DNA of 24,179 nucleotides from the UHGV virus genome UHGV-0071260; one strand, written 5' to 3'. This DNA is from a virus. This document shows, in pieces, positions 5,689-16,323 of the stretch. Position numbers and translations under genes: made by a program. The number at the start of each line of letters is the position of its first letter. Position 1 is the stretch's first letter. Below the pieces are notes generated by a model. The model worked only from the letters and a program-made list of their open reading frames with translations, was not told the origin of the DNA and searched no databases.

Positions 5689-6086
5689 ATGAATATTCTT
5701 TTACCCTGCCTTACCCGCCATCGAACAATCGCTATTACCGACATTCGCGCGGTTTTCACTATATAAGCAAAGTGGGGAAGGAATATCGGGAACAAGTAAG
5801 AGACATCATCGAGCTATTAAATTTAAACATTAACCTACCTTGCCGACTGGCAATCGCCATCTATGCCGCGCCGCCGGATAACCGGATCAGAGATCTGGAT
5901 AATATCCCTAAATGCCTTTTTGATAGCCTTACCTATGCCGGATTTTGGAAGGATGACGGGCAAATTGACTCAATAAAAATTGTCCGCTGTCGGAAGGTAA
6001 AAGGCGGACGCTTGTTTATTAAGATCCGCGAACGCGGCGACCTGCTACCCGATATTGACGAATACGCAACGAATATATGGGGGTGA
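5685..6086 (+). CDS. rusA: RusA-family Holliday junction resolvase
   Basis: N-terminal FTLPYPPSNNRYYRH and RDLDN, GFWKDD, KGGRL motifs as in E. coli RusA; ATGA overlap with ninG. Confidence 0.9.
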   Translation: MNEYSFTLPYPPSNNRYYRHSRGFHYISKVGKEYREQVRDIIELLNLNINLPCRLAIAIYAAPPDNRIRDLDNIPKCLFDSLTYAGFWKDDGQIDSIKIVRCRKVKGGRLFIKIRERGDLLPDIDEYATNIWG

Positions 6087-6325
6087 CAATGGAGCTAATA
6101 AACATTGTTGTTAAATGTACTCAATCAAGCGTCGATTTTTTCACTGAAGGTAAAAAATATTCAGGTTTTATAAAGCATGGGTGCTTTGCTTTCATTCTAC
6201 AAGACGATCTTGTATCGGATTTCGACGACGCCTACGCATGGCGATTAGTCCAGTATTTCCCGTCAAAAAATGAGTATTTTTTGCAGGGTCATTTTAAAAC
6301 TCGGTTTAAGGTGGTGGAGAAATGA
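6077..6325 (+). CDS. hypothetical small protein
   Basis: 82-aa ORF overlapping rusA stop. Confidence 0.45.
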   Translation: MGVTMELINIVVKCTQSSVDFFTEGKKYSGFIKHGCFAFILQDDLVSDFDDAYAWRLVQYFPSKNEYFLQGHFKTRFKVVEK

Positions 6326-6504
6326 AAAACGAAGTTAAAGATCTGCAAATAGATATTCAGCGCGATGAGCATGATTTAGCTACAGTCCGACAAATCCAGG
6401 CTTTTCATATGCGCGAATTGCTTGCATTGAAAGAGCTTGAGAGGAAGTTAGTCCAGTCTATTTCTGATCGTAAACGCCTTATTGCTCGTTACGGGGGCAA
6501 ATAA
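6322..6504 (+). CDS. hypothetical small protein
   Basis: 60-aa ORF, start overlaps upstream stop. Confidence 0.4.
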   Translation: MKNEVKDLQIDIQRDEHDLATVRQIQAFHMRELLALKELERKLVQSISDRKRLIARYGGK

Positions 6505-7226
6505 TGAATCTGGAATCAATTCTTAAATTCCACTTCCCAAAATCACCGCGTTTGTCAGATGAAAGCCGGGGCACGTCCCCGGATGCGCTTAATACTACGG
6601 ATGCGCTAACTGCCGCTGGTATGGCGCAATCGCGCGTAGAGCTTGGTTATAGCGCTTTTCTGGGAAAGATGGAACTATCACAAGCCGAAAAACATAAGGC
6701 TGTAGTTTTGCTTACAGAGCGTTTAAGAGCTATGGCAAAAGATTACGAATACGTCATGGAGCTGGACGAGGACAAACGCAATGATCTTATTATTCTTGTT
6801 GCCGTTTTCGCGTTTCGGGATTACTGCCAGAGTGCCGCGACAGAAAAAACTTGTATGGATTGCGGCGGATATAAATTTACGTTTGACGACTACGGAGAAA
6901 AACACCTTTGCAAAAAATGCAAGGGGCATGGAAAAGTTCGCAATCATTGTAAACGATGCAAAGGGCGCGGCGAGATACCGGATAAAGCAGCCAGTGAAGC
7001 AGCGGAAATGCCAGTGTTCAAAACGTGCCAGCATTGCGGCGGGCGCGGGTACTCGCGTTTCCCTGTAGATCTTGTCCGGCGTGCGGTTAATCAGCTTGTA
7101 TTTCCGGTAAGCCGAACAACGTGGTGGAAGAAATACCGTGCTTTCTATGAAGACGCCATTACTGAATTGTTCAAAGAAGAGGCGCGGGCTGATAACGAAA
7201 TTAAACGAGTGACACGGGGTGAATAA
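6504..7226 (+). CDS. Q: late-gene antitermination protein Q-like, with an expanded DnaJ-type zinc-finger region
   Basis: Lies directly after ninG-rusA as in lambdoid phages; N-terminus MNLESILKFHFPKSP recalls Q82-type antiterminators; four CxxCxGxG-like repeats. Confidence 0.6.
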   Translation: MNLESILKFHFPKSPRLSDESRGTSPDALNTTDALTAAGMAQSRVELGYSAFLGKMELSQAEKHKAVVLLTERLRAMAKDYEYVMELDEDKRNDLIILVAVFAFRDYCQSAATEKTCMDCGGYKFTFDDYGEKHLCKKCKGHGKVRNHCKRCKGRGEIPDKAASEAAEMPVFKTCQHCGGRGYSRFPVDLVRRAVNQLVFPVSRTTWWKKYRAFYEDAITELFKEEARADNEIKRVTRGE

Positions 7227-7426
7227 TGAAACAACAAGAGATAAACATGAAAAAAGTGATTATTCTTTTTGAAGATTATAACGGTGAGGCATGGTGCAAG
7301 TATTTAAGCGGTGTTGAAGCACGGTTGGCGCTAACGTTTATTGCCGCACTGGATGAAGGGGATTTTAACGCTATTCCGGTTAAGCCAGTAGAAATCTATC
7401 GTCGCGAGGTGAAGGATGAAGCCTAA
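7226..7426 (+). CDS. hypothetical small protein
   Basis: ATG overlaps Q stop (TAATG); GGGGTG RBS. Confidence 0.4.
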   Translation: MKQQEINMKKVIILFEDYNGEAWCKYLSGVEARLALTFIAALDEGDFNAIPVKPVEIYRREVKDEA

Positions 7427-7685
7427 ATTAAAAGAACATCTATTCGCAAAGCTGGTTAATAATCTGACATTAACGGCGCGTGTGTGCAGTGATACGCAAC
7501 AATTAAGGGCGTGGATAGTAAGGGATTTAAGAAAATACATCGAGCCAGGCGGGCCAGGTGACGAGATGACTATGGACAAGGCCATCAAGCGCCGTTCGGC
7601 TGATTGGTCAGTAAGTAACACAGGATTAACCGGATACATCGAAGGCTATAACGACTGTTTACAGGATCATAGCGATGGCAAATAA
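7416..7685 (+). CDS. hypothetical protein
   Basis: GAGGTGAAGG RBS; overlaps upstream stop. Confidence 0.45.
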   Translation: MKPKLKEHLFAKLVNNLTLTARVCSDTQQLRAWIVRDLRKYIEPGGPGDEMTMDKAIKRRSADWSVSNTGLTGYIEGYNDCLQDHSDGK

Positions 7686-7974
7686 ACACTTACATTTGAA
7701 TTTAAAAGGTGAATACTTCCACGCCATCCGGGCAGGAAAGAAGGTGGAAGAATACCGGCTTTACAATGAATACTGGCGTAAACGCCTGGAGGGGCGGGAG
7801 TACACAAGATTAATCATTAAATGGGGTTATCCATCGGATGATGAGAAAGACCGGATTATCGTATTGCCTTACATGGGGTACGAAATCAAGTTGATTCAAC
7901 ATCCACTATTCGGCCCTGATCCGGTGAAGGTATTCGCAATAAAGTGTGATATTTACTGGCAATACAGATTTTAA
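7675..7974 (+). CDS. ASCH-domain-like protein
   Basis: GxKxxExR signature (AGKKVEEYR) near the N-terminus, 99 aa. Confidence 0.5.
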   Translation: MANKHLHLNLKGEYFHAIRAGKKVEEYRLYNEYWRKRLEGREYTRLIIKWGYPSDDEKDRIIVLPYMGYEIKLIQHPLFGPDPVKVFAIKCDIYWQYRF

Positions 7975-7987
7975 GGTTTGTTGAGCA

Positions 7988-8197
7988 ATGAAAAAAGCTG
8001 GCCTGTCAATTAGCCGCGTATTGTGCGGTGATGAAAACGAGATCCGCATAGAAATTAAATTTAGCACTGGTAAAGAGATAATTCTTTACACGACACCTGA
8101 AAACCTGACGCTGGCGCTTACTGGTAAATCTGAAACGCCGTGCGACGTCCGGTTGCGCAATATTAAAATTAAGGAATTAAGGAAGGGTGAAAAATGA
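7988..8197 (+). CDS. hypothetical small protein
   Basis: 69-aa ORF. Confidence 0.4.
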   Translation: MKKAGLSISRVLCGDENEIRIEIKFSTGKEIILYTTPENLTLALTGKSETPCDVRLRNIKIKELRKGEK

Positions 8198-8394
8198 AAA
8201 GTAGAATGAAACGCCTGGTAAGAGCTTACGACAAGGCTTTAATGGTTTTTAGTGACCTGCGGCACAATAAACGTGAGCGTCGTAAATGGGCGCGTTTATT
8301 TGCTAAAGAATGGCACGAAGATGATGCGACAATCGACTGCCAAAGAGACGCAGACGAATTAGCAGATGATAACGTTTACTATATGATGTGGTGA
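8194..8394 (+). CDS. hypothetical basic small protein, paralog A of a tandem pair
   Basis: GGAAGGGTG RBS; clear similarity to the next gene (MKSxxKRxxRAYDKALxxFxxL...KRxRRxxARL...WH...DAD..A.DN.YY). Confidence 0.5.
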   Translation: MKSRMKRLVRAYDKALMVFSDLRHNKRERRKWARLFAKEWHEDDATIDCQRDADELADDNVYYMMW

Positions 8395-8398
8395 CAAT

Positions 8399-8635
8399 AT
8401 GAAAAGTAACCGTAAGCGCATGATAAGAGCATATGATAAAGCGTTAATAGAATTTAACGAACTATCACGCAGTAAGCGCCGCCGCAGACAATTCGCGCGA
8501 CTTCTTTTTCATGTATGGCACGACGCTGATTTCTTTTTTGATGCCAGACATATAACACAGGAAGATGCGGATAATATAGCTTACGATAACATTTACTACA
8601 TATTGAGAAGGTGGGAATATGCAAATAATCATTGA
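8399..8635 (+). CDS. hypothetical basic small protein, paralog B of a tandem pair
   Basis: Shares the N-terminal and central motif with 8194-8394. Confidence 0.5.
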   Translation: MKSNRKRMIRAYDKALIEFNELSRSKRRRRQFARLLFHVWHDADFFFDARHITQEDADNIAYDNIYYILRRWEYANNH

Positions 8636-8984
8636 TTACCTTTGCCACGCTGCAAATACGCTTTTCGGTTTTTATCAGCATCCATTCCTGAAAGAATGGG
8701 ACGAAATGCTTAATGACATCATTGATAAAGGGTTAATAGTTGAAGTGGACGAGCTAACGATAAAATTCAATTACGAAGGCAAAGAATATGAAATATGGGT
8801 AGGGAATAGATGGTATTCATACGGGCATATTTATTCAATTGGCGGCAAATACATTAAACGGAGCCAGGAGTTTAGACCGCGATTCCGAACAATGCGCCGT
8901 CTGCGTGACCTGCATATGAATATATTTGAAGATCAGAAAGCGTGTGAACTATTCAAGATCTACGGTGATAAATCATGGAACTAA
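8619..8984 (+). CDS. hypothetical protein
   Basis: 121-aa ORF with AAGGTGGG RBS. Confidence 0.5.
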   Translation: MQIIIDYLCHAANTLFGFYQHPFLKEWDEMLNDIIDKGLIVEVDELTIKFNYEGKEYEIWVGNRWYSYGHIYSIGGKYIKRSQEFRPRFRTMRRLRDLHMNIFEDQKACELFKIYGDKSWN

Positions 8985-9205
8985 AAATCTGGCAGGCTAT
9001 CGACGTTGTTGATAACGAATTAACCATGTTTGCCACTGATGGAAAGCGCGTGGTGATCGCTACATGGACGCGCAACCATGATGATATAGCTTTTCGTCGC
9101 AAGGCTGCGGAGTGGCTTTTCTCTGATGAAGGCTACACGATGAATATCTCCCAGCTTGCCAGAATGAAGGATGAAAAGCTGGTAGATAGTTACACGACTG
9201 CATAG
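8975..9205 (+). CDS. hypothetical small protein
   Basis: 76-aa ORF. Confidence 0.4.
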   Translation: MELKIWQAIDVVDNELTMFATDGKRVVIATWTRNHDDIAFRRKAAEWLFSDEGYTMNISQLARMKDEKLVDSYTTA

Positions 9206-9215
9206 TGGGGCAAAT

Positions 9216-9449
9216 ATGCGTATCTATGAACACAAGCGGGATAAAACCCGCTTTTTTGTTCGTGCTGGCGTGGCGTACCAGTATCACGAATGTGGATATA
9301 TTGAGGTGCTTGCTTACAACCTGGATTTCGAACAAGAAAAAGAATGGTTTGACTTTAAGATTTACCGTAAGCGCAAGCCAACGCGCGACGAACGACACGC
9401 TATCCGGGACTTTTTAATCAGCATAGACCACTGGGAGGCAGACGAATGA
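9216..9449 (+). CDS. hypothetical small protein
   Basis: GTGGGG RBS, 77 aa. Confidence 0.45.
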   Translation: MRIYEHKRDKTRFFVRAGVAYQYHECGYIEVLAYNLDFEQEKEWFDFKIYRKRKPTRDERHAIRDFLISIDHWEADE

Positions 9450-9673
9450 AAGTTAAATTCTTGCACGATCACGGATACCAGTCATTGAAACAGGTTGTTG
9501 GTAAGGTCGTTAATGTCGTTCATAGCGATGATATTACTTGCATGATTAATGGTGCTGATCTCATTGCCGCTGGTGCTGATGACCATTACATCAATCCGGC
9601 GTGGTCGTATACGTTCAGCTTGGGCGATTTCGTCGGGGACAAGGGGCGCGGGCTTGAGATTGTAGAGGATTAA
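9446..9673 (+). CDS. hypothetical small protein
   Basis: GGGAGG RBS; ATGA overlap. Confidence 0.45.
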   Translation: MKVKFLHDHGYQSLKQVVGKVVNVVHSDDITCMINGADLIAAGADDHYINPAWSYTFSLGDFVGDKGRGLEIVED

Positions 9674-9677
9674 CGGT

Positions 9678-9893
9678 ATGGACGTTTACGAAGATCTCTA
9701 CCTACAGACCAATAGCCGCACTTTTTATTTTCTGAAAAGCGGCGTCGTATATCGCAGCGACAACGGGGTGATAATGAAAGAGTGTTTATTTAAGCGTAAA
9801 GACCTACTCGAAGATCTGGTTTTTGCCGGGATATTTCGTAAACGTCCGGCTAACCTGGAAGAAGAAATGTTGATCGACGAGGTGTTAAAATGA
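9678..9893 (+). CDS. hypothetical small protein
   Basis: GAGGA RBS. Confidence 0.45.
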   Translation: MDVYEDLYLQTNSRTFYFLKSGVVYRSDNGVIMKECLFKRKDLLEDLVFAGIFRKRPANLEEEMLIDEVLK

Positions 9894-10135
9894 AAGTGAA
9901 TTATTTCAGGGCAAAAGACAAGGCAACAGGAAAGCGGGTGGCTATCCTGGTTAATGAAGCAAATTATATGTTTGTTCTCCAGCCGTGGTGCATAGCTGAC
10001 TATAACGATGATTATCGCCGTCACGCTGCGCGGCGGGCGGTCGGGATGAAAGGCTGGCAGCCTCGCGACATGCTTAATTACTGCGACTGGAATCTGATAG
10101 CAAAATACACGGTCGATTATAAAGGGGTTTTCTGA
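9890..10135 (+). CDS. hypothetical small protein
   Basis: GAGGTG RBS; ATGA overlap. Confidence 0.45.
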   Translation: MKVNYFRAKDKATGKRVAILVNEANYMFVLQPWCIADYNDDYRRHAARRAVGMKGWQPRDMLNYCDWNLIAKYTVDYKGVF

Positions 10136-10347
10136 TGCAAGTTAAATGCTCATACTCAAGCAATGACAGTGTTTTCACGATTGGGAGTATTTATGACGTT
10201 CACATCGTTTATGGCAATGAAGCACACACAATGAGTAATTGCCTTGCCTTGATTGATAATCATGACGAAATATGGGTATTCAGGCCGAGCTATGAAGGCG
10301 GTGAAATATCCGGTGTAGGTTTTGCTGCCAGCTTTGAACGTTATTAA
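10135..10347 (+). CDS. hypothetical small protein, tandem paralog family member 1 of 4
   Basis: AAGGGG RBS; motifs FTIGSIYDV and IDNHDEIWVF shared with the next three genes. Confidence 0.5.
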   Translation: MQVKCSYSSNDSVFTIGSIYDVHIVYGNEAHTMSNCLALIDNHDEIWVFRPSYEGGEISGVGFAASFERY

Positions 10348-10357
10348 AGGGGCAACA

Positions 10358-10615
10358 ATGAAACATTTATATTTTGAGGTATTGCAGACGCGCGACCGCA
10401 ATATTTTTGAAGAAGGGAAGATCTATTGCGGCGTTCAACTCCACGGCGCACCGGGCGGTGATGGTGCAATGGCGATAACTGGCGATGATGATAAAGTTTA
10501 TTTCGCTTATGTTAGCCATATCAATAACGCCGCTGGTTTGTATATTTATCGCATAGTGCATGATTTCCGTGAGATCGCGGAGTTTTGCGCCCGCGAAGGC
10601 AGTAAACCGGAATGA
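10358..10615 (+). CDS. hypothetical small protein, tandem paralog family member 2 of 4
   Basis: AAGGGG RBS before ATG 10358; motifs FEEGKIYCGV and AITGDDDKVYFAY. Confidence 0.5.
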   Translation: MKHLYFEVLQTRDRNIFEEGKIYCGVQLHGAPGGDGAMAITGDDDKVYFAYVSHINNAAGLYIYRIVHDFREIAEFCAREGSKPE

Positions 10616-10625
10616 GTGAGGTGCT

Positions 10626-10865
10626 ATGAATCGGAAACATAGATACCAGTGCACATACTCACGATGCAGCGCGTTTTTTAAGAATGGCAAGATCTACGAG
10701 GTTGACGCGGCATTGGTTGACGCAAAGGATCAGGAATATATTCATGCCATTACTGACGACCAGGGGCAGTTATGGCGATTTTATAAGATGGGTTGTGGCA
10801 CGGCGCTTGTTTATGCGCGTGCTGGTGGTGGTGCTTTTGCTGCGTTTTCGTATGTAGGGGTATGA
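10626..10865 (+). CDS. hypothetical small protein, tandem paralog family member 3 of 4
   Basis: GAGTGAGGTG RBS; motifs FKNGKIYEV, AITDDQGQLWRFY, GAFAAFSY. Confidence 0.5.
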   Translation: MNRKHRYQCTYSRCSAFFKNGKIYEVDAALVDAKDQEYIHAITDDQGQLWRFYKMGCGTALVYARAGGGAFAAFSYVGV

Positions 10866-10867
10866 AA

Positions 10868-11086
10868 ATGATTTTAACGTGTAACGAATCGAAATTGGGC
10901 TGCTTTGAGGAAGGCGTACAGTACACGGCTGAAAAACCGATGGGATTGTCTCCTAAATTTCCGTTTATCGTCGTGACTGACACTTACGGTCACTTATGGT
11001 ATGCAGGGCCGCTAGGCGGTATTGGTCGTTATGTTGTCCGTAGTTCGGATGGGGCGATGAAGGTTACTTTTACGGAAGAAACGTAA
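10868..11086 (+). CDS. hypothetical small protein, tandem paralog family member 4 of 4
   Basis: ATG 10868 (or 10862) after AGGGG; motifs FEEGVQYTA and VVTDTYGHLWYAG. Confidence 0.5.
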   Translation: MILTCNESKLGCFEEGVQYTAEKPMGLSPKFPFIVVTDTYGHLWYAGPLGGIGRYVVRSSDGAMKVTFTEET

Positions 11087-11087
11087 A

Positions 11088-11103
11088 TGTGATCTGTATC
11101 ACA
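11088..11103. promoter_or_regulatory. CRP-consensus-like palindrome TGTGAT-N4-ATCACA (copy 3 of the GTGAT-N4-ATCAC motif)
   Basis: aaaTGTGATctgtATCACAagg matches the CRP consensus core TGTGA-N6-TCACA; intergenic, directly after a stop codon. Confidence 0.35.
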
Positions 11104-11112
11104 AGGTTTACG

Positions 11113-11144
11113 AAATGGCATTGTTTCGGCAGTGCCATTTTGTT
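11113..11144 (+). terminator. putative intrinsic terminator or regulatory hairpin
   Basis: 11-bp stem with one mismatch (AAATGGCATTG / CAGTGCCATTT), 6-nt loop, followed by TGTT. Confidence 0.4.
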
Positions 11145-11184
11145 ATAAAGAAGCTGAAGAGAGAACGATGCGGAGGGTAGAAAA

Positions 11185-11463
11185 ATGAAACGCTGGATTA
11201 ACAAAGAAGTCGAATCTCGCTTAAACGCATTTTGGGAGATGGTGGAGAAAGAAGACCCAGCACACGCTGCAAGCCCTTACCTGAACAACATCGAATATCA
11301 CTACATTGCAGCAAACAACGCGGAGTTCGAAGAAGAAGGTGGAGCCGACAAGTTCGCACAAAGCAACGCATTCAACAACGCAAACGAAATGATGATGGCA
11401 GTCATCGAACAGGCAGAGGAAGACTACGAATGCAAATCACTTGAATTTGCACGCATGGCATAA
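11185..11463 (+). CDS. hypothetical acidic protein
   Basis: GGAGGG RBS; 92 aa. Confidence 0.5.
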   Translation: MKRWINKEVESRLNAFWEMVEKEDPAHAASPYLNNIEYHYIAANNAEFEEEGGADKFAQSNAFNNANEMMMAVIEQAEEDYECKSLEFARMA

Positions 11464-11472
11464 GGGGGAACC

Positions 11473-11613
11473 ATGAACGCTAACGCTAAATATCCGGCCT
11501 GGGTTTTCGAACTATACGCCCGCTACTTTGAAGTATTGGCACCAGGTGAAGAAGCATTAAGCATTGACGAATACGCGGAGTGCTTAGGATTTAGAGGAGA
11601 CGAAGAAGCATAA
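11473..11613 (+). CDS. hypothetical small protein (46 aa)
   Basis: Strong AAGGGGGA RBS 5 nt before ATG; read from sequence, below the track cut-off. Confidence 0.4.
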   Translation: MNANAKYPAWVFELYARYFEVLAPGEEALSIDEYAECLGFRGDEEA

Positions 11614-11618
11614 AACAC

Positions 11619-11634
11619 GGGGCCGGATGGCCCC
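11619..11634 (+). other. GC-rich stem-loop (GGGGCC-GGAT-GGCCCC) in a short intergenic spacer
   Basis: Perfect 6-bp GC stem with tetraloop; no U-tract after it. Confidence 0.3.
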
Positions 11635-11656
11635 ATCAAATCAGAAGGGTGTAATC

Positions 11657-11950
11657 ATGAAAAGCGCTAAATTTATTGCTTGCTGTTTTGTTGAAGTTCC
11701 CTATAACGATGCGTTCTATCACGCTACTTTTACCGATAAGAATGGGAATGATCACGTTATTGTCGGCAAGCGTGGTGACTGGCTTTATATAACTGATGAT
11801 GATTGCATTTTCACTAAAAATCAGTTGCAAAAACTGGTTATCGGTAAACAGGAACAGGAAGACTATCAAATCATCCCGGTGGAAAGACTGAAAAGGGAGC
11901 AGAGAATTAAACGCGCTCAAGAGGAATTAAATAACATAAAGGGTATGTGA
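11657..11950 (+). CDS. hypothetical protein
   Basis: ATG 11657 with GAAGGGTG RBS; the track start at 11627 lies inside the hairpin. Confidence 0.5.
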   Translation: MKSAKFIACCFVEVPYNDAFYHATFTDKNGNDHVIVGKRGDWLYITDDDCIFTKNQLQKLVIGKQEQEDYQIIPVERLKREQRIKRAQEELNNIKGM

Positions 11951-11951
11951 T

Positions 11952-12206
11952 ATGAAAACAATCAGACTATGGCGCGGCAATAGCCGACTTGATGGTGAGT
12001 ACATCCGCGTGATTGAAGATGTTAATCGTGGTCGGTTTTATGAATTGGCATACAGCGAAAAAAGGGAGAAAGAATATCTGAACGAATCGACCCCTATGTG
12101 GTGTAAAGTGGCTGGCCTTGCCTCAATTCTGCGCCACGGGTTTTATGCAGATCATAACACGCTAATTGATGCCGAACTGGTGACAACTCTTTACGAAGGA
12201 GAATAA
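11952..12206 (+). CDS. hypothetical small protein
   Basis: AAGGG RBS; 84 aa. Confidence 0.5.
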   Translation: MKTIRLWRGNSRLDGEYIRVIEDVNRGRFYELAYSEKREKEYLNESTPMWCKVAGLASILRHGFYADHNTLIDAELVTTLYEGE

Positions 12207-12209
12207 ACA

Positions 12210-12533
12210 ATGAGTAAATTTATCAGCGTTAAGGTTTTCCGTGGCAATTTTCCAGAAGATAAAGAAATTGGACAATTCGCAGGTGAACGTGGCGTATGTT
12301 TCCGTGTAGCTACTGAAGACGATGCGCACGTTAAATGCTTTCACGTATCTGAACCGCCTTTTAATGCAGACCATCTTGAAGACCTGAATAGAATTAAAAG
12401 CCTTATTTTTGCCTATCTGGCGTTCCATGGCATAGCTGATGCTGATGTTGAATTGGTTGGGGCCGAACTGGTGGCAGAATACAAAATGACTGAAGGCGAA
12501 AACGGAGGGGTGGAAATTGAGCGCATCAAATAA
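12210..12533 (+). CDS. hypothetical protein
   Basis: AAGGAG RBS; 107 aa. Confidence 0.5.
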   Translation: MSKFISVKVFRGNFPEDKEIGQFAGERGVCFRVATEDDAHVKCFHVSEPPFNADHLEDLNRIKSLIFAYLAFHGIADADVELVGAELVAEYKMTEGENGGVEIERIK

Positions 12534-12768
12534 GCTGTATAAAGTCAGGTGTAAAGGCGAATACCCTGGCTTTACGGTTGGTTGCGAATATCTGGGCCAC
12601 ATTGGGTACGGCCCTTTCGGTGAGTTGGGAATGAATACGATTGACGACGACGGCGACAGCAGGACGCTCGATCTTGATACGGATGACTTCGAATATATCC
12701 CTCCAGTTACTTACCGTGCCGTAGATGATTTCCTGGCTGAACAAGAAGATGATGAAGAGGATGATTAA
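12517..12768 (+). CDS. hypothetical protein with acidic C-terminus
   Basis: Putative TTG start at 12517 preceded by GGAGGGGTGG; start codon uncertain. Confidence 0.4.
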   Translation: MSASNKLYKVRCKGEYPGFTVGCEYLGHIGYGPFGELGMNTIDDDGDSRTLDLDTDDFEYIPPVTYRAVDDFLAEQEDDEEDD

Positions 12769-12770
12769 CT

Positions 12771-12911
12771 ATGGATGACGAATACGTTAACAATTTTATT
12801 GTTATGTTTCTTAGTGAAAATTGGCGCATGTTTGAACATTATTGTTTTGAGCGCGGGGAAAATGCTGAAGAAATATATCAATATTTAGGCGGGGAGAAAG
12901 AGGATGATTGA
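12771..12911 (+). CDS. hypothetical small protein (46 aa)
   Basis: ATG directly after upstream stop; read from sequence, below the track cut-off. Confidence 0.3.
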   Translation: MDDEYVNNFIVMFLSENWRMFEHYCFERGENAEEIYQYLGGEKEDD

Positions 12912-13098
12912 ATGTCTTATCATTGCTGTGTTTCTCCTTTATATTGCTGGCGCTATCCTGATGTCTTGTTTTATCAAATCTAATGATCTCGATCGTGGTG
13001 GTCTTGAGATTCCTTTCTGGCCTGTAGCGGTGTTTATTGCTCTCGTAGATGCCGCGCGCGCGCAGATCAAAAGGGTTATTAAGGAGCGCAAGAAATGA
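12904..13098 (+). CDS. small membrane protein
   Basis: GGGGAGAAAGAGG RBS; hydrophobic N-terminal helix IIAVFLLYIAGAILMSCFI. Confidence 0.45.
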   Translation: MIECLIIAVFLLYIAGAILMSCFIKSNDLDRGGLEIPFWPVAVFIALVDAARAQIKRVIKERKK

Positions 13099-13277
13099 TT
13101 GAAGATGGTATATACGCCGTAACACTAATCGACAAGATGTTTTATCGCGTAGAGGGTGGTGATATTCGCGTTTGCGTTAGCGATGGTGAGTGGGTAGCGC
13201 CAATCATCAAGACGACGCGAGAAACAATTAAGATCTGGCTTGATAATGGCGATTTGGTGAAAGTTAGTGATTTGTAG
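13095..13277 (+). CDS. hypothetical small protein
   Basis: AAGGAG RBS; 60 aa. Confidence 0.45.
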   Translation: MIEDGIYAVTLIDKMFYRVEGGDIRVCVSDGEWVAPIIKTTRETIKIWLDNGDLVKVSDL

Positions 13278-13339
13278 CCATAATCGCGCATAAAAAACAA
13301 ATAGATTAAAATATTTCCTAACAATGCGAAATTGTAATT

Positions 13340-13362
13340 GCCCGGCCCGCGCCGGGTTTTTG
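13340..13362 (+). terminator. intrinsic terminator upstream of the holin gene (candidate tR'-like element)
   Basis: Stem CCCGGC / GCCGGG with loop CCGC followed by TTTTT; in a 104-bp AT-rich intergenic region. Confidence 0.55.
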
Positions 13363-13381
13363 CTTTGTTGGAGGTAAATCT

Positions 13382-13582
13382 ATGTTCGACAAAATACGGG
13401 AGGCGTGCGCGTATGCAGTAGGGGCCGTAACGGCCTTTTTTGGTGCGATAACCATTAATGATGTTGCTGTCTTTGTGGGTATCTTATCAACCGTAGGCAC
13501 ATTTGCCGTTAACTATTACTTCAAATCACAGGAGAACAAGCGAGCGCAAGAGGAACACGACGCGCGAATGGGGAATAAGTAA
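13382..13582 (+). CDS. class II holin (pinholin-like)
   Basis: 66 aa with two hydrophobic helices and a charged C-terminus (YFKSQENKRAQEEHDAR); directly upstream of a SAR endolysin. Confidence 0.7.
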   Translation: MFDKIREACAYAVGAVTAFFGAITINDVAVFVGILSTVGTFAVNYYFKSQENKRAQEEHDARMGNK

Positions 13583-13583
13583 C

Positions 13584-14075
13584 ATGATTAACCAATCGCT
13601 GAAAAACCGATTAACTAAGGCGGCGGCTGGTGGAGTATTAGCCATTGCATCCGTTTTGCTTGTATGGGTTGAGGGTACGGCTTACGAGCCTTATTACGAT
13701 ACCGGAGGCGTGCTAACTGTATGCAATGGCATAACTGGACCTGATGTTGTCCCAGGTAAGAGATACACACCGGATGAATGCGAGAGACTTTTACAAAAAC
13801 ACTTAGCCGTTTATAAAAAGGCGGTAGATCGTTATGTAAAAGTTGACATGAATGACTACCAACGCGCCGCGCTAATTAGCTTTTCATACAATATCGGGGT
13901 TGACGCTTTCAAAAAATCAACCTTGTTAAAAAAAATAAACAAAGGCGACTTTAAAGGGGCGTGTAAGGAGTTAGATCGCTGGGTATATGATAACGGGCGA
14001 TACATACAGGGCTTAAAAAATCGTCGCGATATTGAGCGCACCGTTTGTGAGTGGGGCGTAAATGATGGAAAGTGA
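13584..14075 (+). CDS. SAR endolysin (phage lysozyme, T4-lysozyme fold)
   Basis: N-terminal signal-anchor-release helix AAAGGVLAIASVLLVWV; catalytic E-x8-D-x5-T spacing (EGTAYEPYYDTGGVLT); close resemblance to P21 R; track ORF 13503 starts upstream of the likely ATG. Confidence 0.9.
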   Translation: MINQSLKNRLTKAAAGGVLAIASVLLVWVEGTAYEPYYDTGGVLTVCNGITGPDVVPGKRYTPDECERLLQKHLAVYKKAVDRYVKVDMNDYQRAALISFSYNIGVDAFKKSTLLKKINKGDFKGACKELDRWVYDNGRYIQGLKNRRDIERTVCEWGVNDGK

Positions 14076-14586
14076 TAATGAACTAAAACGAAAACTACAC
14101 TACGACCCGGCAACAGGTATTTTTACCTATAAAGTTAGCCCACACGGGAGGATCAAGGCGGGTAGTGTAGCCGGGTATAAACATAAAAGCGGGTATATAT
14201 ACATAGGAAGATATAAAGCGCATCGCCTCGCGTGGTTTTTCCATTATGGGGTGTGGCCCGAAAAGGACATTGATCATATTAATGGGATAAAAACAGACAA
14301 CAGGATAGTAAACCTTAGAGAAACAGATGATGCGCATAATTGCAGAAACAAGAAACATATTACCACTCATACATTGTCTGCATTCAGGGGCGTTAGCTAC
14401 CACAAAACGGATCGTGGTAATCCTAAGTGGCGGGTAAGAATTACTGACAATAACGGTAAACGTATATCTATTGGTTTATTTGACTCACTAGACGAAGCAA
14501 TCGCCGCTCGCATTTTGGCAGAAAACTTTTTCTATGGTGAATATGCACCTTCGATGGGTTGCGAGGGGGAAACGTGGACAAGATAA
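14062..14586 (+). CDS. HNH homing endonuclease with AP2-type DNA-binding domain
   Basis: HNH motif DHINGIKTDNRIVNLRETDDAHN and AP2-like segment FRGVSYHK...WRVRI; overlaps endolysin 3' end and Rz 5' end. Confidence 0.85.
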   Translation: MMESDNELKRKLHYDPATGIFTYKVSPHGRIKAGSVAGYKHKSGYIYIGRYKAHRLAWFFHYGVWPEKDIDHINGIKTDNRIVNLRETDDAHNCRNKKHITTHTLSAFRGVSYHKTDRGNPKWRVRITDNNGKRISIGLFDSLDEAIAARILAENFFYGEYAPSMGCEGETWTR

Positions 14587-15323: not shown

Positions 15324-15851
15324 ATGGCTAAGGCTAAAGGCATTAAATTGCCTCAATTTAAGATCCCACTCTTTGAGCATACAACAGTTTTCTTTTGCCC
15401 GACCCGCGAGATGTTCTATGAATTTTGCGAAAAGGCAGGAATTCCGATTGAACCTGATTTCGAGTTGGCTGGAGGATTAACGCTTACTTGCACTGGCGAG
15501 AATGGTGGTAACTTCTACGTGATCGCAGTATTCAACAATGAGTTGGGAACGCTAACGCATGAAGTGGCACATGCCACATTTCATTGTTTAAGTGATGTTG
15601 GCGTAATGGCTACAACAGATCCAAGCCATCCGGCAAATGAAACTTACGCTTATATGATTGGACGTATGTTTGATGCTTTTTATCCTGTACTACTTGAAAG
15701 CATCGACGCACAAGCCGCAGCTATCAGGGCGCAACAAGCGCTAGAAGAAGCTGAAAGAAAAAAAGAAGCCAAAAGAAAAGCAAAAACAAAAGAGCCGCCG
15801 AAAGTGGGAAAATACATTATTGCGGGGCAAAGCCGTTATGCAATGGGATGA
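15324..15851 (+). CDS. hypothetical protein with HExxH motif (possible zinc-metallopeptidase-like)
   Basis: THEVAH motif; Lys/Glu-rich C-terminal tail; AGGAGA RBS. Confidence 0.45.
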   Translation: MAKAKGIKLPQFKIPLFEHTTVFFCPTREMFYEFCEKAGIPIEPDFELAGGLTLTCTGENGGNFYVIAVFNNELGTLTHEVAHATFHCLSDVGVMATTDPSHPANETYAYMIGRMFDAFYPVLLESIDAQAAAIRAQQALEEAERKKEAKRKAKTKEPPKVGKYIIAGQSRYAMG

Positions 15852-16323
15852 TTATTTCAGTTATAACCCAGAAACAGAGGATCTAATGTGGAAGGTATAC
15901 AGATCTCCCAACGCAAAACCAGGCGACATTATCAGGGGGACTAAATCTAGAAACAAGCACTTGAGAGTAAATTTAAACAGAAAATATTATCAAGTTCATT
16001 GCATTATATGGGAAATGCACAACGGCCCGATACCGGAAGGAATGGAGGTAGACCATATTGACCATGACAAATGGAATAATAGGTTGCCAAACTTAAGACT
16101 CGTTGACGATGAGGGTAATGCGCATAATATGAGCTTGTTTAAAACTAACACAAGCGGCGTTTCCGGTGTCGGATGGCATAGCCAGCGTAAAAAATGGCGA
16201 GCAACAATATGGCATAAATGCAAGCAAATATCTCTTGGGTTGTTTGATAATTTTGATGATGCTGTAATGGCGCGGCGTGAAGCTGAAATTAAATATGGCT
16301 ATCACCCAAATCATGGTCATTGA
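15838..16323 (+). CDS. HNH homing endonuclease with AP2-type domain (second copy)
   Basis: HNH motif DHIDHDKWNNRLPNLRLVDDEGNAHN and AP2-like segment SGVSGVGWH...WRATI; the track start at 15820 is TTG, ATG is at 15838. Confidence 0.85.
   Translation: MQWDDYFSYNPETEDLMWKVYRSPNAKPGDIIRGTKSRNKHLRVNLNRKYYQVHCIIWEMHNGPIPEGMEVDHIDHDKWNNRLPNLRLVDDEGNAHNMSLFKTNTSGVSGVGWHSQRKKWRATIWHKCKQISLGLFDNFDDAVMARREAEIKYGYHPNHGH

Follow-up and report, generated by a model that had tools for sequence, protein, structure and literature searches.

Evidence for a tandem array of anciently duplicated small genes, with a predicted Gp54-like barrel fold, in an mEp021-type coliphage genome

The viral genome UHGV-0071260, a stretch of 24,179 nucleotides (nt) that we call the window, carries four adjacent small genes (P1 to P4) that an earlier note, made from the letters alone, had proposed to be tandem paralogues of an unrecognised protein family. 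The four open reading frames (ORFs) lie on the + strand where the note had placed them, with the sizes that it had given (70–85 amino acids, aa), and all the motif strings that it had quoted are present, including the G-x-F-A-A-x-F ending common to P1 and P3. The close packing and translational coupling that it had described are likewise borne out by TGATG and ATGA overlaps and by 10-nt spacers. The array and the hairpin that closes it are made up as follows.

10135–10347, + strand: P1, an ORF of 70 aa, isoelectric point (pI) 4.6; start within a TGATG overlap shared with the stop of the upstream gene 9890–10135
10358–10615, + strand: P2, an ORF of 85 aa, pI 5.5; longer C-terminal part, without the Cys conserved in strand 1 of the predicted fold
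10626–10865, + strand: P3, an ORF of 79 aa, pI 8.8; the hub of the family and the member that was modelled
10862–11086, + strand: P4, an ORF of 74 aa, pI 5.7; the most divergent member, overlapping P3 (ATGA)
11110–11146, + strand: strong hairpin with a U-rich tract (RNA fold −25.4 kcal/mol, z −4.8), terminator-like, directly after P4, closing the array

The spacers between P1 and P2 and between P2 and P3 are 10 nt each, with Shine-Dalgarno-like GGGG and GAGG, and three of the four proteins (P1, P2 and P4; pI 4.6–5.7) are acidic. Alleles of P4 fall into two types, a and b, that are ∼57% identical. The hairpin has a 15-bp stem flanked by A- and U-tracts; phages mEp044, mEp010, and mEp554 have a Rho-independent terminator annotated at the homologous site, and no terminator is annotated there in the array-less mEp021 and mEp515.

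The note had taken the DNA to be that of a phage, and similarity to known genomes agrees. The region is 84–88% identical to Escherichia phages MagusPhagus and mEp044, partly matches mEp013, mEp010, mEp554, mEp021, and mEp515, and reaches 99.8% identity with chromosomal prophages of E. coli (e.g., in strain MS 21-1); some match to the window was found in 30 of 5426 complete E. coli genomes. By these similarities the window is best assigned to an mEp021-type (mEpimmI) temperate coliphage or prophage. The mEpimmI phages were described in 2025 as Nus-dependent, non-lambdoid temperate siphophages, with most of their variable genes placed in the ‘regulation cluster’ to which this region belongs; that paper does not discuss the array genes, and the word ‘paralog’ is absent from it (PMC11893012).

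Raw pairwise comparison gave only partly convincing evidence that the four genes are related: in Smith-Waterman alignments scored against 5000 shuffles, P1–P3 (p ∼2e-4), P3–P4 (p ∼0.004), and P2–P3 (p ∼0.012) were significant, and P1–P2, P1–P4, and P2–P4 were not. Because of this partial result, profiles were built from orthologue sets. A profile search of a 5.8-billion-protein collection supplied 80 proteins, none of which has a Pfam domain and all of which, where a source is named, come from E. coli or its phages; these were split into six subfamilies, namely P1, P2, P3, P4, M5 (a 94-aa type that precedes P1 in MagusPhagus), and V (a 72-aa type in mEp044). When each subfamily alignment was compared by hhalign with a profile of all the other subfamilies, the resulting P values were 5.2e-9 for P1, 1.8e-5 for P2 (which is tied to the family chiefly via P3), 5.3e-10 for P3, 4.3e-4 for P4, 4e-6 for M5, and 1.4e-8 for V. 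Even the single P4 sequence gave P 8e-5 against the family profile over 43–51 collinear columns, and the best of 20 unrelated small proteins of the window used as controls reached P 0.048, the controls aligning over at most 27 columns. The alignment statistics on which the note had let its claim stand or fall are thus significant for all four genes at the level of profiles, although not for three of the six raw pairs.

The family alignment is collinear from end to end, with identities between paralogues of 16–28%. Its conserved elements are the strand-1 Cys (not in P2), F-x-x-G-x-x-Y, [IV]-x-D-[DN]-x-G-x-x-[WY], and a final Phe. The weakest member, P4, is bridged by a 64-aa relative (P0102) that is 34% identical to it over the full length and carries a P1/P3-type FTSGKIYVV motif. 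In-register similarity also persists in the DNA, both at the FxxGKIY motif between P2 and P3 (22 nt, 77%) and at the GxFAA ending between P1 and P3 (17 nt, 82%). One might still argue that the four ORFs are not homologous and share a generic beta-hairpin pattern by chance or composition, given the three non-significant raw pairs and the fact that the F-x-x-G…D-x-G-x-W pattern also gives spurious summed matches to beta-propeller repeat proteins; but this is scarcely credible when the leave-one-out profiles single out 4 of 4 genes and none of the controls, the alignments run collinearly over the full length with intermediates between subfamilies, adjacency and order are kept in more than 30 loci, and in-register hybrids between members occur naturally. 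The profile tests therefore reject chance similarity as an explanation of the array and confirm that P1–P4 are true paralogues, very divergent copies of one phage-only family. The low identity between them indicates that the duplications are old.

The family extends beyond these four genes. Two dispersed members were recognised elsewhere in the window, and a two-domain relative was found in T1-like phages.

6077–6325, + strand: fifth member, 82 aa, dispersed, between rusA and Q, with an insertion at the DDxG hairpin
12517–12768, + strand: sixth member, 83 aa, dispersed, with a family-like N-terminal half (FTVGCEY…IDDDGD) and an acidic tail
15468–16106 of locus L014 (phage Bas13 LeonhardEuler, bas13_0070), also 6001–6639 of locus L003: 212-aa two-domain protein

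The fifth member matches the family profile with hhalign P 6.1e-7 (probability 92%, 56 columns) and hmmsearch E 3.4e-5; mEp013 has no counterpart of it between rusA and Q. The sixth, which matches phrog_25234, gives hhalign P 1.3e-4 over 42 columns, and its strongly acidic tail, with a net charge of −16, has EDDEEDD as its end. In two database proteins, P0066 and P0071, M5 or V passes in register into an acidic tail of this type at the DDxGD motif; both are natural hybrids. Possibly the tail forms a functional module of its own. In further entries, deletions have fused one member with another or with a neighbouring gene. The genes at 11627–11950, 13095–13277, and 9446–9673, like other small genes nearby, do not belong to the family (hhalign P ≥ 0.02). 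A broader profile search found further members of 63–67 aa in T1-like phages, all called ‘hypothetical’ and without a Pfam domain, and the 212-aa protein contains two tandem family domains followed by a hydrophobic C-terminal tail that resembles a membrane anchor, so that at least this relative may act at the membrane. The searches of protein collections for which the note had called thus found relatives in E. coli phages and prophages and in T1-like phages.

Copy number was compared by scanning 36 related loci (7 phages, 4 complete E. coli genomes, 23 IMG/VR contigs, the window, and others) with the family hidden Markov model (HMM); the IMG/VR loci had been chosen for carrying P3, which biases the distribution towards occupied arrays. 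At least eight member types were found, always in the order (M5, V, or W-X)-P1-P2-P3-P4, the sister phages contributing four types (M5, V, W, and X) beyond P1–P4. There are 0 copies at the locus in mEp021 and mEp515, 1 in mEp554, 2 in mEp013, 3 in mEp010, mEp044, and strain MLI107, 4 in the window, and 5 in MagusPhagus and strains 09-00049, PAR, and 2017C-4173W12. The comparison among related phages that the note had suggested has therefore yielded a fixed order with 0–5 copies. The four-gene family that it had reported is real but incomplete: the window holds two further members, sister phages add four types, and T1-like phages carry relatives. P1 is frameshifted in strain PAR (locus L010, 4008–4234) and P4 in two IMG/VR contigs (loci L024 and L025, 4162–4420), and many database proteins are shortened or fused forms of family members. 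By this evidence the array is apparently undergoing ongoing decay and recombination.

The note had called the family unrecognised, and curated sequence libraries agree. No Pfam or NCBIfam family matched P1–P4 (sub-threshold Pfam hits to Caskin1-CID and DUF6436 are noise), and PADLOC-DB gave no match at E ≤ 0.1 for the six members of the window. Only PHROG, with families of unknown function, gave matches: phrog_31142 matches P1 (8e-5) and P3 (8e-7), both over part of their length, the same two proteins match phrog_4927 faintly, and no PHROG family matches P2 or P4. The remote member P0086 matches phrog_31142 in full (5e-40), the 67-aa protein of T1-like phages is a full member of phrog_4927, and the 212-aa protein is a full member of phrog_10580. 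Relatives are in this way spread over PHROGs 31142, 4927, 9122, 10580, 11551, and others, all labelled unknown function, so that PHROG clustering splits what profile comparison shows as one superfamily. A single-protein scan found no close relative of P3 in 185,579 GTDB species-representative genomes. Neither the curated libraries nor the literature searched describe the tandem paralogy of P1–P4.

One group of matches is misleading. An exhaustive profile search and a PDB sequence search were both topped by beta-propeller proteins (Reg_prop, NHL, BNR) and designed ‘Cake’ proteins. The matches amount to ∼6 bits per repeat with individual E-values of ∼100, and the low E-values are sums over 6–24 repeats; moreover, the matched proteins are multi-repeat proteins of 335–3288 aa, whereas the array proteins are single units of ∼75 aa that are modelled as closed barrels, unlike propellers. 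Blades of the Reg_prop (PF07494), NHL, BNR, and PQQ-like ‘Cake’ types share with the family a local pattern, F-x-x-G…D-x-G-x-[LIV]-[WY], that is typical of beta-meanders. We regard the propeller matches as an artefact and no evidence of homology, the family motif resembling a generic blade meander, and propeller homology and membership were rejected. The misleading E-values of the family profile on such proteins are a trap for automated annotation.

The structure of P3 was predicted with AlphaFold2 from a 35-sequence family alignment. The model (predicted local distance difference test, pLDDT, 84; predicted template modelling score, pTM, 0.73) is all-beta, with six strands (residues 5–12, 23–31, 38–43, 49–56, 59–63, and 70–78) and a long loop after strand 1. 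The conserved residues fall at the Cys in strand 1, at F-x-x-G-x-x-Y where strand 2 starts, at the D-D-x-G turn followed by W/Y, and at the Phe of strand 6; in the model these positions (strand starts, a tight turn, and the last strand) read as scaffold residues. The model matches the rare fold seen by crystallography in Gp54 of phage Bas11 (PDB 9AXB), a beta-barrel of six strands in which a prominent loop separates strand 1 from strand 2. That structure was released in 2024, after the AlphaFold2 training date, and could not have been used in training. A Foldseek search of the PDB with the P3 model gave no significant match and did not list 9axb, and a Foldseek search of BFVD returned numerous small, uncharacterised proteins from T1-like phages and other phages of enterobacteria, at template-modelling scores (TM-scores) of ∼0.6–0.87. 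Identity as an SH3 domain was considered and rejected: SH3-like barrels have five strands and a 3-10 helix, whereas the P3 fold has a sixth strand and the long strand 1–2 loop, and the scores were far below that of the Gp54 match. Structure prediction, which the note had named as a check, thus relieves the family of its status as a structural orphan through P3. For P4 it did not succeed, and a fold common to all four proteins would follow from their homology to P3 in sequence and not from an independent model of each.

Gp54 is the second trigger of the defence protein CapRelSJ46 (Zhang et al., Nature 2024, PMC11578894). For binding, the two terminal strands of Gp54 first unfold, and its middle strands then pair with the sheet of CapRel. 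Residues G24 and I25 are part of this interface, the mutation G24D permits escape, and CapRel is not activated even by close homologues of Gp54 (PMC11578894). Our comparison used 11 Gp54 homologues that had been confirmed against the 9AXB sequence at E 2e-13; they belong to phrog_7421, which no family member matches. The only stretch that hhalign aligned places the family's F-x-x-G-x-x-Y opposite F21-K-K-G24-I25 of Gp54, both at the start of strand 2, a correspondence that is suggestive and not statistically supported. Judging from the model, the array proteins seem at the level of fold to represent a divergent offshoot of the Gp54-type barrels.

Substitution patterns indicate that the copies are in use. 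Between orthologues (up to 7 pairs per gene), the ratio of nonsynonymous to synonymous substitution rates (dN/dS) is 0.09–0.23 for P1, 0.06–0.17 for P2, 0.05–0.22 for P3, and 0.08–0.24 for P4, similar to that of the flanking genes (∼0.03–0.43 among pairs with adequate divergence). On these ratios P1–P4 are evidently functional coding genes, each under purifying selection. Diversifying selection, which the note had read into the retained duplication, was not borne out by the whole-gene values (0.05–0.24 overall), and only residues 27–48 of P1 come near neutrality. There pN/pS between allelic types is 0.7–1.0, never above 1, against 0.04–0.3 in the rest of the gene. The segment extends from the loop behind strand 2 through strand 3 to the DxxG hairpin, which suggests a variable surface patch.

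The surroundings bear on when the array is expressed. Upstream lie genes for Dam, NinG, RusA, and the Q antiterminator (PF03589, 6504–7226); Q is followed by ∼25 small genes and then by holin, lysozyme, HNH endonuclease, and terminase genes, so that the array sits between Q and the lysis genes in a variable accessory block. A promoter-like site with a −10 element CATAAT at 13279–13284 is followed by a GC-rich hairpin and T-run at 13340–13357, directly before the holin start at 13382, and the whole of 13250–13385 suggests a lambdoid late promoter and terminator pair. Because such a late promoter would lie downstream of the array, we infer that the block 7226–13277, including the array, would be delayed-early, not late.

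Two other features of this neighbourhood deserve mention. Within the accessory block, the genes at 8194–8394 and 8399–8635, which encode 66 and 78 aa, form a clear tandem pair of paralogues with 49% identity (blastp E 3e-22); they are unrelated to the array family, and the block therefore has a second duplicated pair. Between the lysis and terminase genes, 14062–14586 encodes an HNH endonuclease with an AP2-like domain, at the position usual for a terminase-associated HNH in cos-type phages.

Taken together, we consider it very likely that the array consists of anciently duplicated genes of a phage-restricted, single-domain family (∼65–95 aa) with a Gp54-like barrel fold. What the proteins do is a more tentative matter. 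The genes are packed in a rightward operon with P1 coupled to a conserved upstream gene; the copies differ outside the conserved positions, yet each is conserved among orthologues; and the whole array is dispensable and varies between sister phages. Scans of Pfam, NCBIfam, and PADLOC gave no match for P1–P4 to any enzyme, membrane, or nucleic-acid-binding family. Since Gp54 binds an immune protein of the host, and is alone among proteins with this fold in having been studied, we infer that the array may encode accessory small binders, probably delayed-early, that act on host or competing-element targets in host takeover or counter-defence, a proposal to which we would give somewhat less than an even chance. 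The note had likened the genes to anti-defence or host-takeover proteins, which may be a reasonable idea. The copies would be co-expressed during lytic growth from an antiterminated rightward transcript, probably in the delayed-early phase and upstream of the late promoter, and each soluble, mostly acidic copy might bind a different host or competing-element protein through a copy-specific variable surface on the common barrel.

Several observations weigh against parts of this picture. With regard to the fold, the one confident model is that of P3 from the whole-family alignment; an AlphaFold2 model of P4 from its own subfamily (8 sequences) reached a pLDDT of only 49, with strands in the C-terminal half alone. 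The Pfam family of Gp54 (PF25180) matched none of P1–P4 at E ≤ 1, and hhalign of the family (35 sequences) against the 11 Gp54 homologues gave P 0.33, over 12 columns around F-x-x-G. With regard to function, Gp54 itself is known only as a CapRel trigger (PMC11578894), and no annotation or experiment assigns a function to any family member. The whole-gene ratios show none of the positive selection that arms-race genes often display, and the promoter and terminator matches at 13250–13385, from which the timing is deduced, are at the level of consensus only. Finally, the prototypes mEp021 and mEp515 have no copy at the locus, so any function of the array must be conditional.

A bolder form of the binder proposal, which we think unlikely as matters stand, is that the Gp54-type barrel is a general phage binder scaffold and the array a combinatorial battery, in which each paralogue would neutralise, or be sensed by, a different immune or physiological protein of the host through strand pairing by the variable middle of the barrel, the cassettes being shuffled or lost according to host defences. 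If true, this would give Gp54 its missing role and predict new trigger and inhibitor pairs for CapRel-like systems.

Three other functions were weighed. The genes might be cargo expressed from the prophage (a moron, superinfection exclusion, or defence) that benefits the lysogen and not lytic growth; they are accessory and variable, a strong terminator-like hairpin follows the array, and the region often bears cargo in temperate phages. However, a promoter-like site on the + strand upstream of the array was looked for and none was found, P1 is coupled to the conserved upstream gene, PADLOC gave no match, and relatives occur in strictly lytic T1-like phages, so we hold this to be quite improbable. 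No more probable is a function in phage regulation or DNA transactions as small barrels (SH3-, Sm-, or OB-like) that bind nucleic acid, as would befit genes of a nin or Q region, because P1, P2, and P4 are acidic and match no nucleic-acid-binding family, the conserved residues are hydrophobic, Gly, or Asp with no basic patch, by far the best structural match is to Gp54, a protein binder, and a number that varies from 0 to 5 ill suits a core regulator. Least probable of the three is a role as minor virion-associated or assembly proteins: remote members weakly match phrog_14592 (‘virion structural protein’, E 1e-3 to 2e-6), a single BFVD neighbour bears the label ‘putative minor capsid protein’, mEp021_41, the mEp021 homologue of 9678–9893 (71 aa, two genes upstream of P1, in the regulatory region), has the annotation of a virion structural protein, and the mEpimmI paper reports that mEp021 virions were analysed by mass spectrometry (PMC11893012), but the phrog_14592 matches do not come from P1–P4 themselves, the genes lie outside the structural module in varying number, and mEp021 and mEp515 form virions with no copy at the locus.

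Whether or not the array genes prove to be binders, the locus has a bearing on Gp54, which is among the few phage proteins shown to be directly sensed by a bacterial immune protein. It suggests that the rare Gp54 fold is part of a much larger and more divergent phage superfamily, missed by sequence libraries, which in one group of temperate gut coliphages has expanded into a tandem array of 0–5 interchangeable cassettes. Should the copies be counter-defence or host-takeover binders, they would offer the field a new protein scaffold; should they not, they would be one more phage accessory block. Accessory blocks of small phage genes are common; this array gives a testable entry into the biology of Gp54-like proteins, with natural variants of 0, 1, 2, 3, 4, and 5 copies, some of them in cultured phages (mEp021, mEp554, mEp013, mEp010, mEp044, and MagusPhagus), forming a ready comparison.

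Among known systems, the accessory blocks of lambdoid phages (the nin region and the cargo between Q and lysis genes) share with the array both their neighbourhood and their mosaic presence and absence, but the known nin genes encode proteins unrelated to the array family, and we know of no multi-copy paralogous array described for the nin region. Gp54 differs from the array in being a single-copy gene of lytic Drexlerviridae, whereas the array is present in 0–5 tandem copies in temperate mEpimmI phages, and the D-D-x-G-x-x-W hairpin and the strand-1 Cys are features of the array family and not of Gp54. The two kinds of protein do occur together: in Tunavirus Bas13 (LeonhardEuler), and likewise in a metagenomic T1-like contig, three family members, among them the 212-aa two-domain protein, share a run of small genes with a homologue of Gp54.

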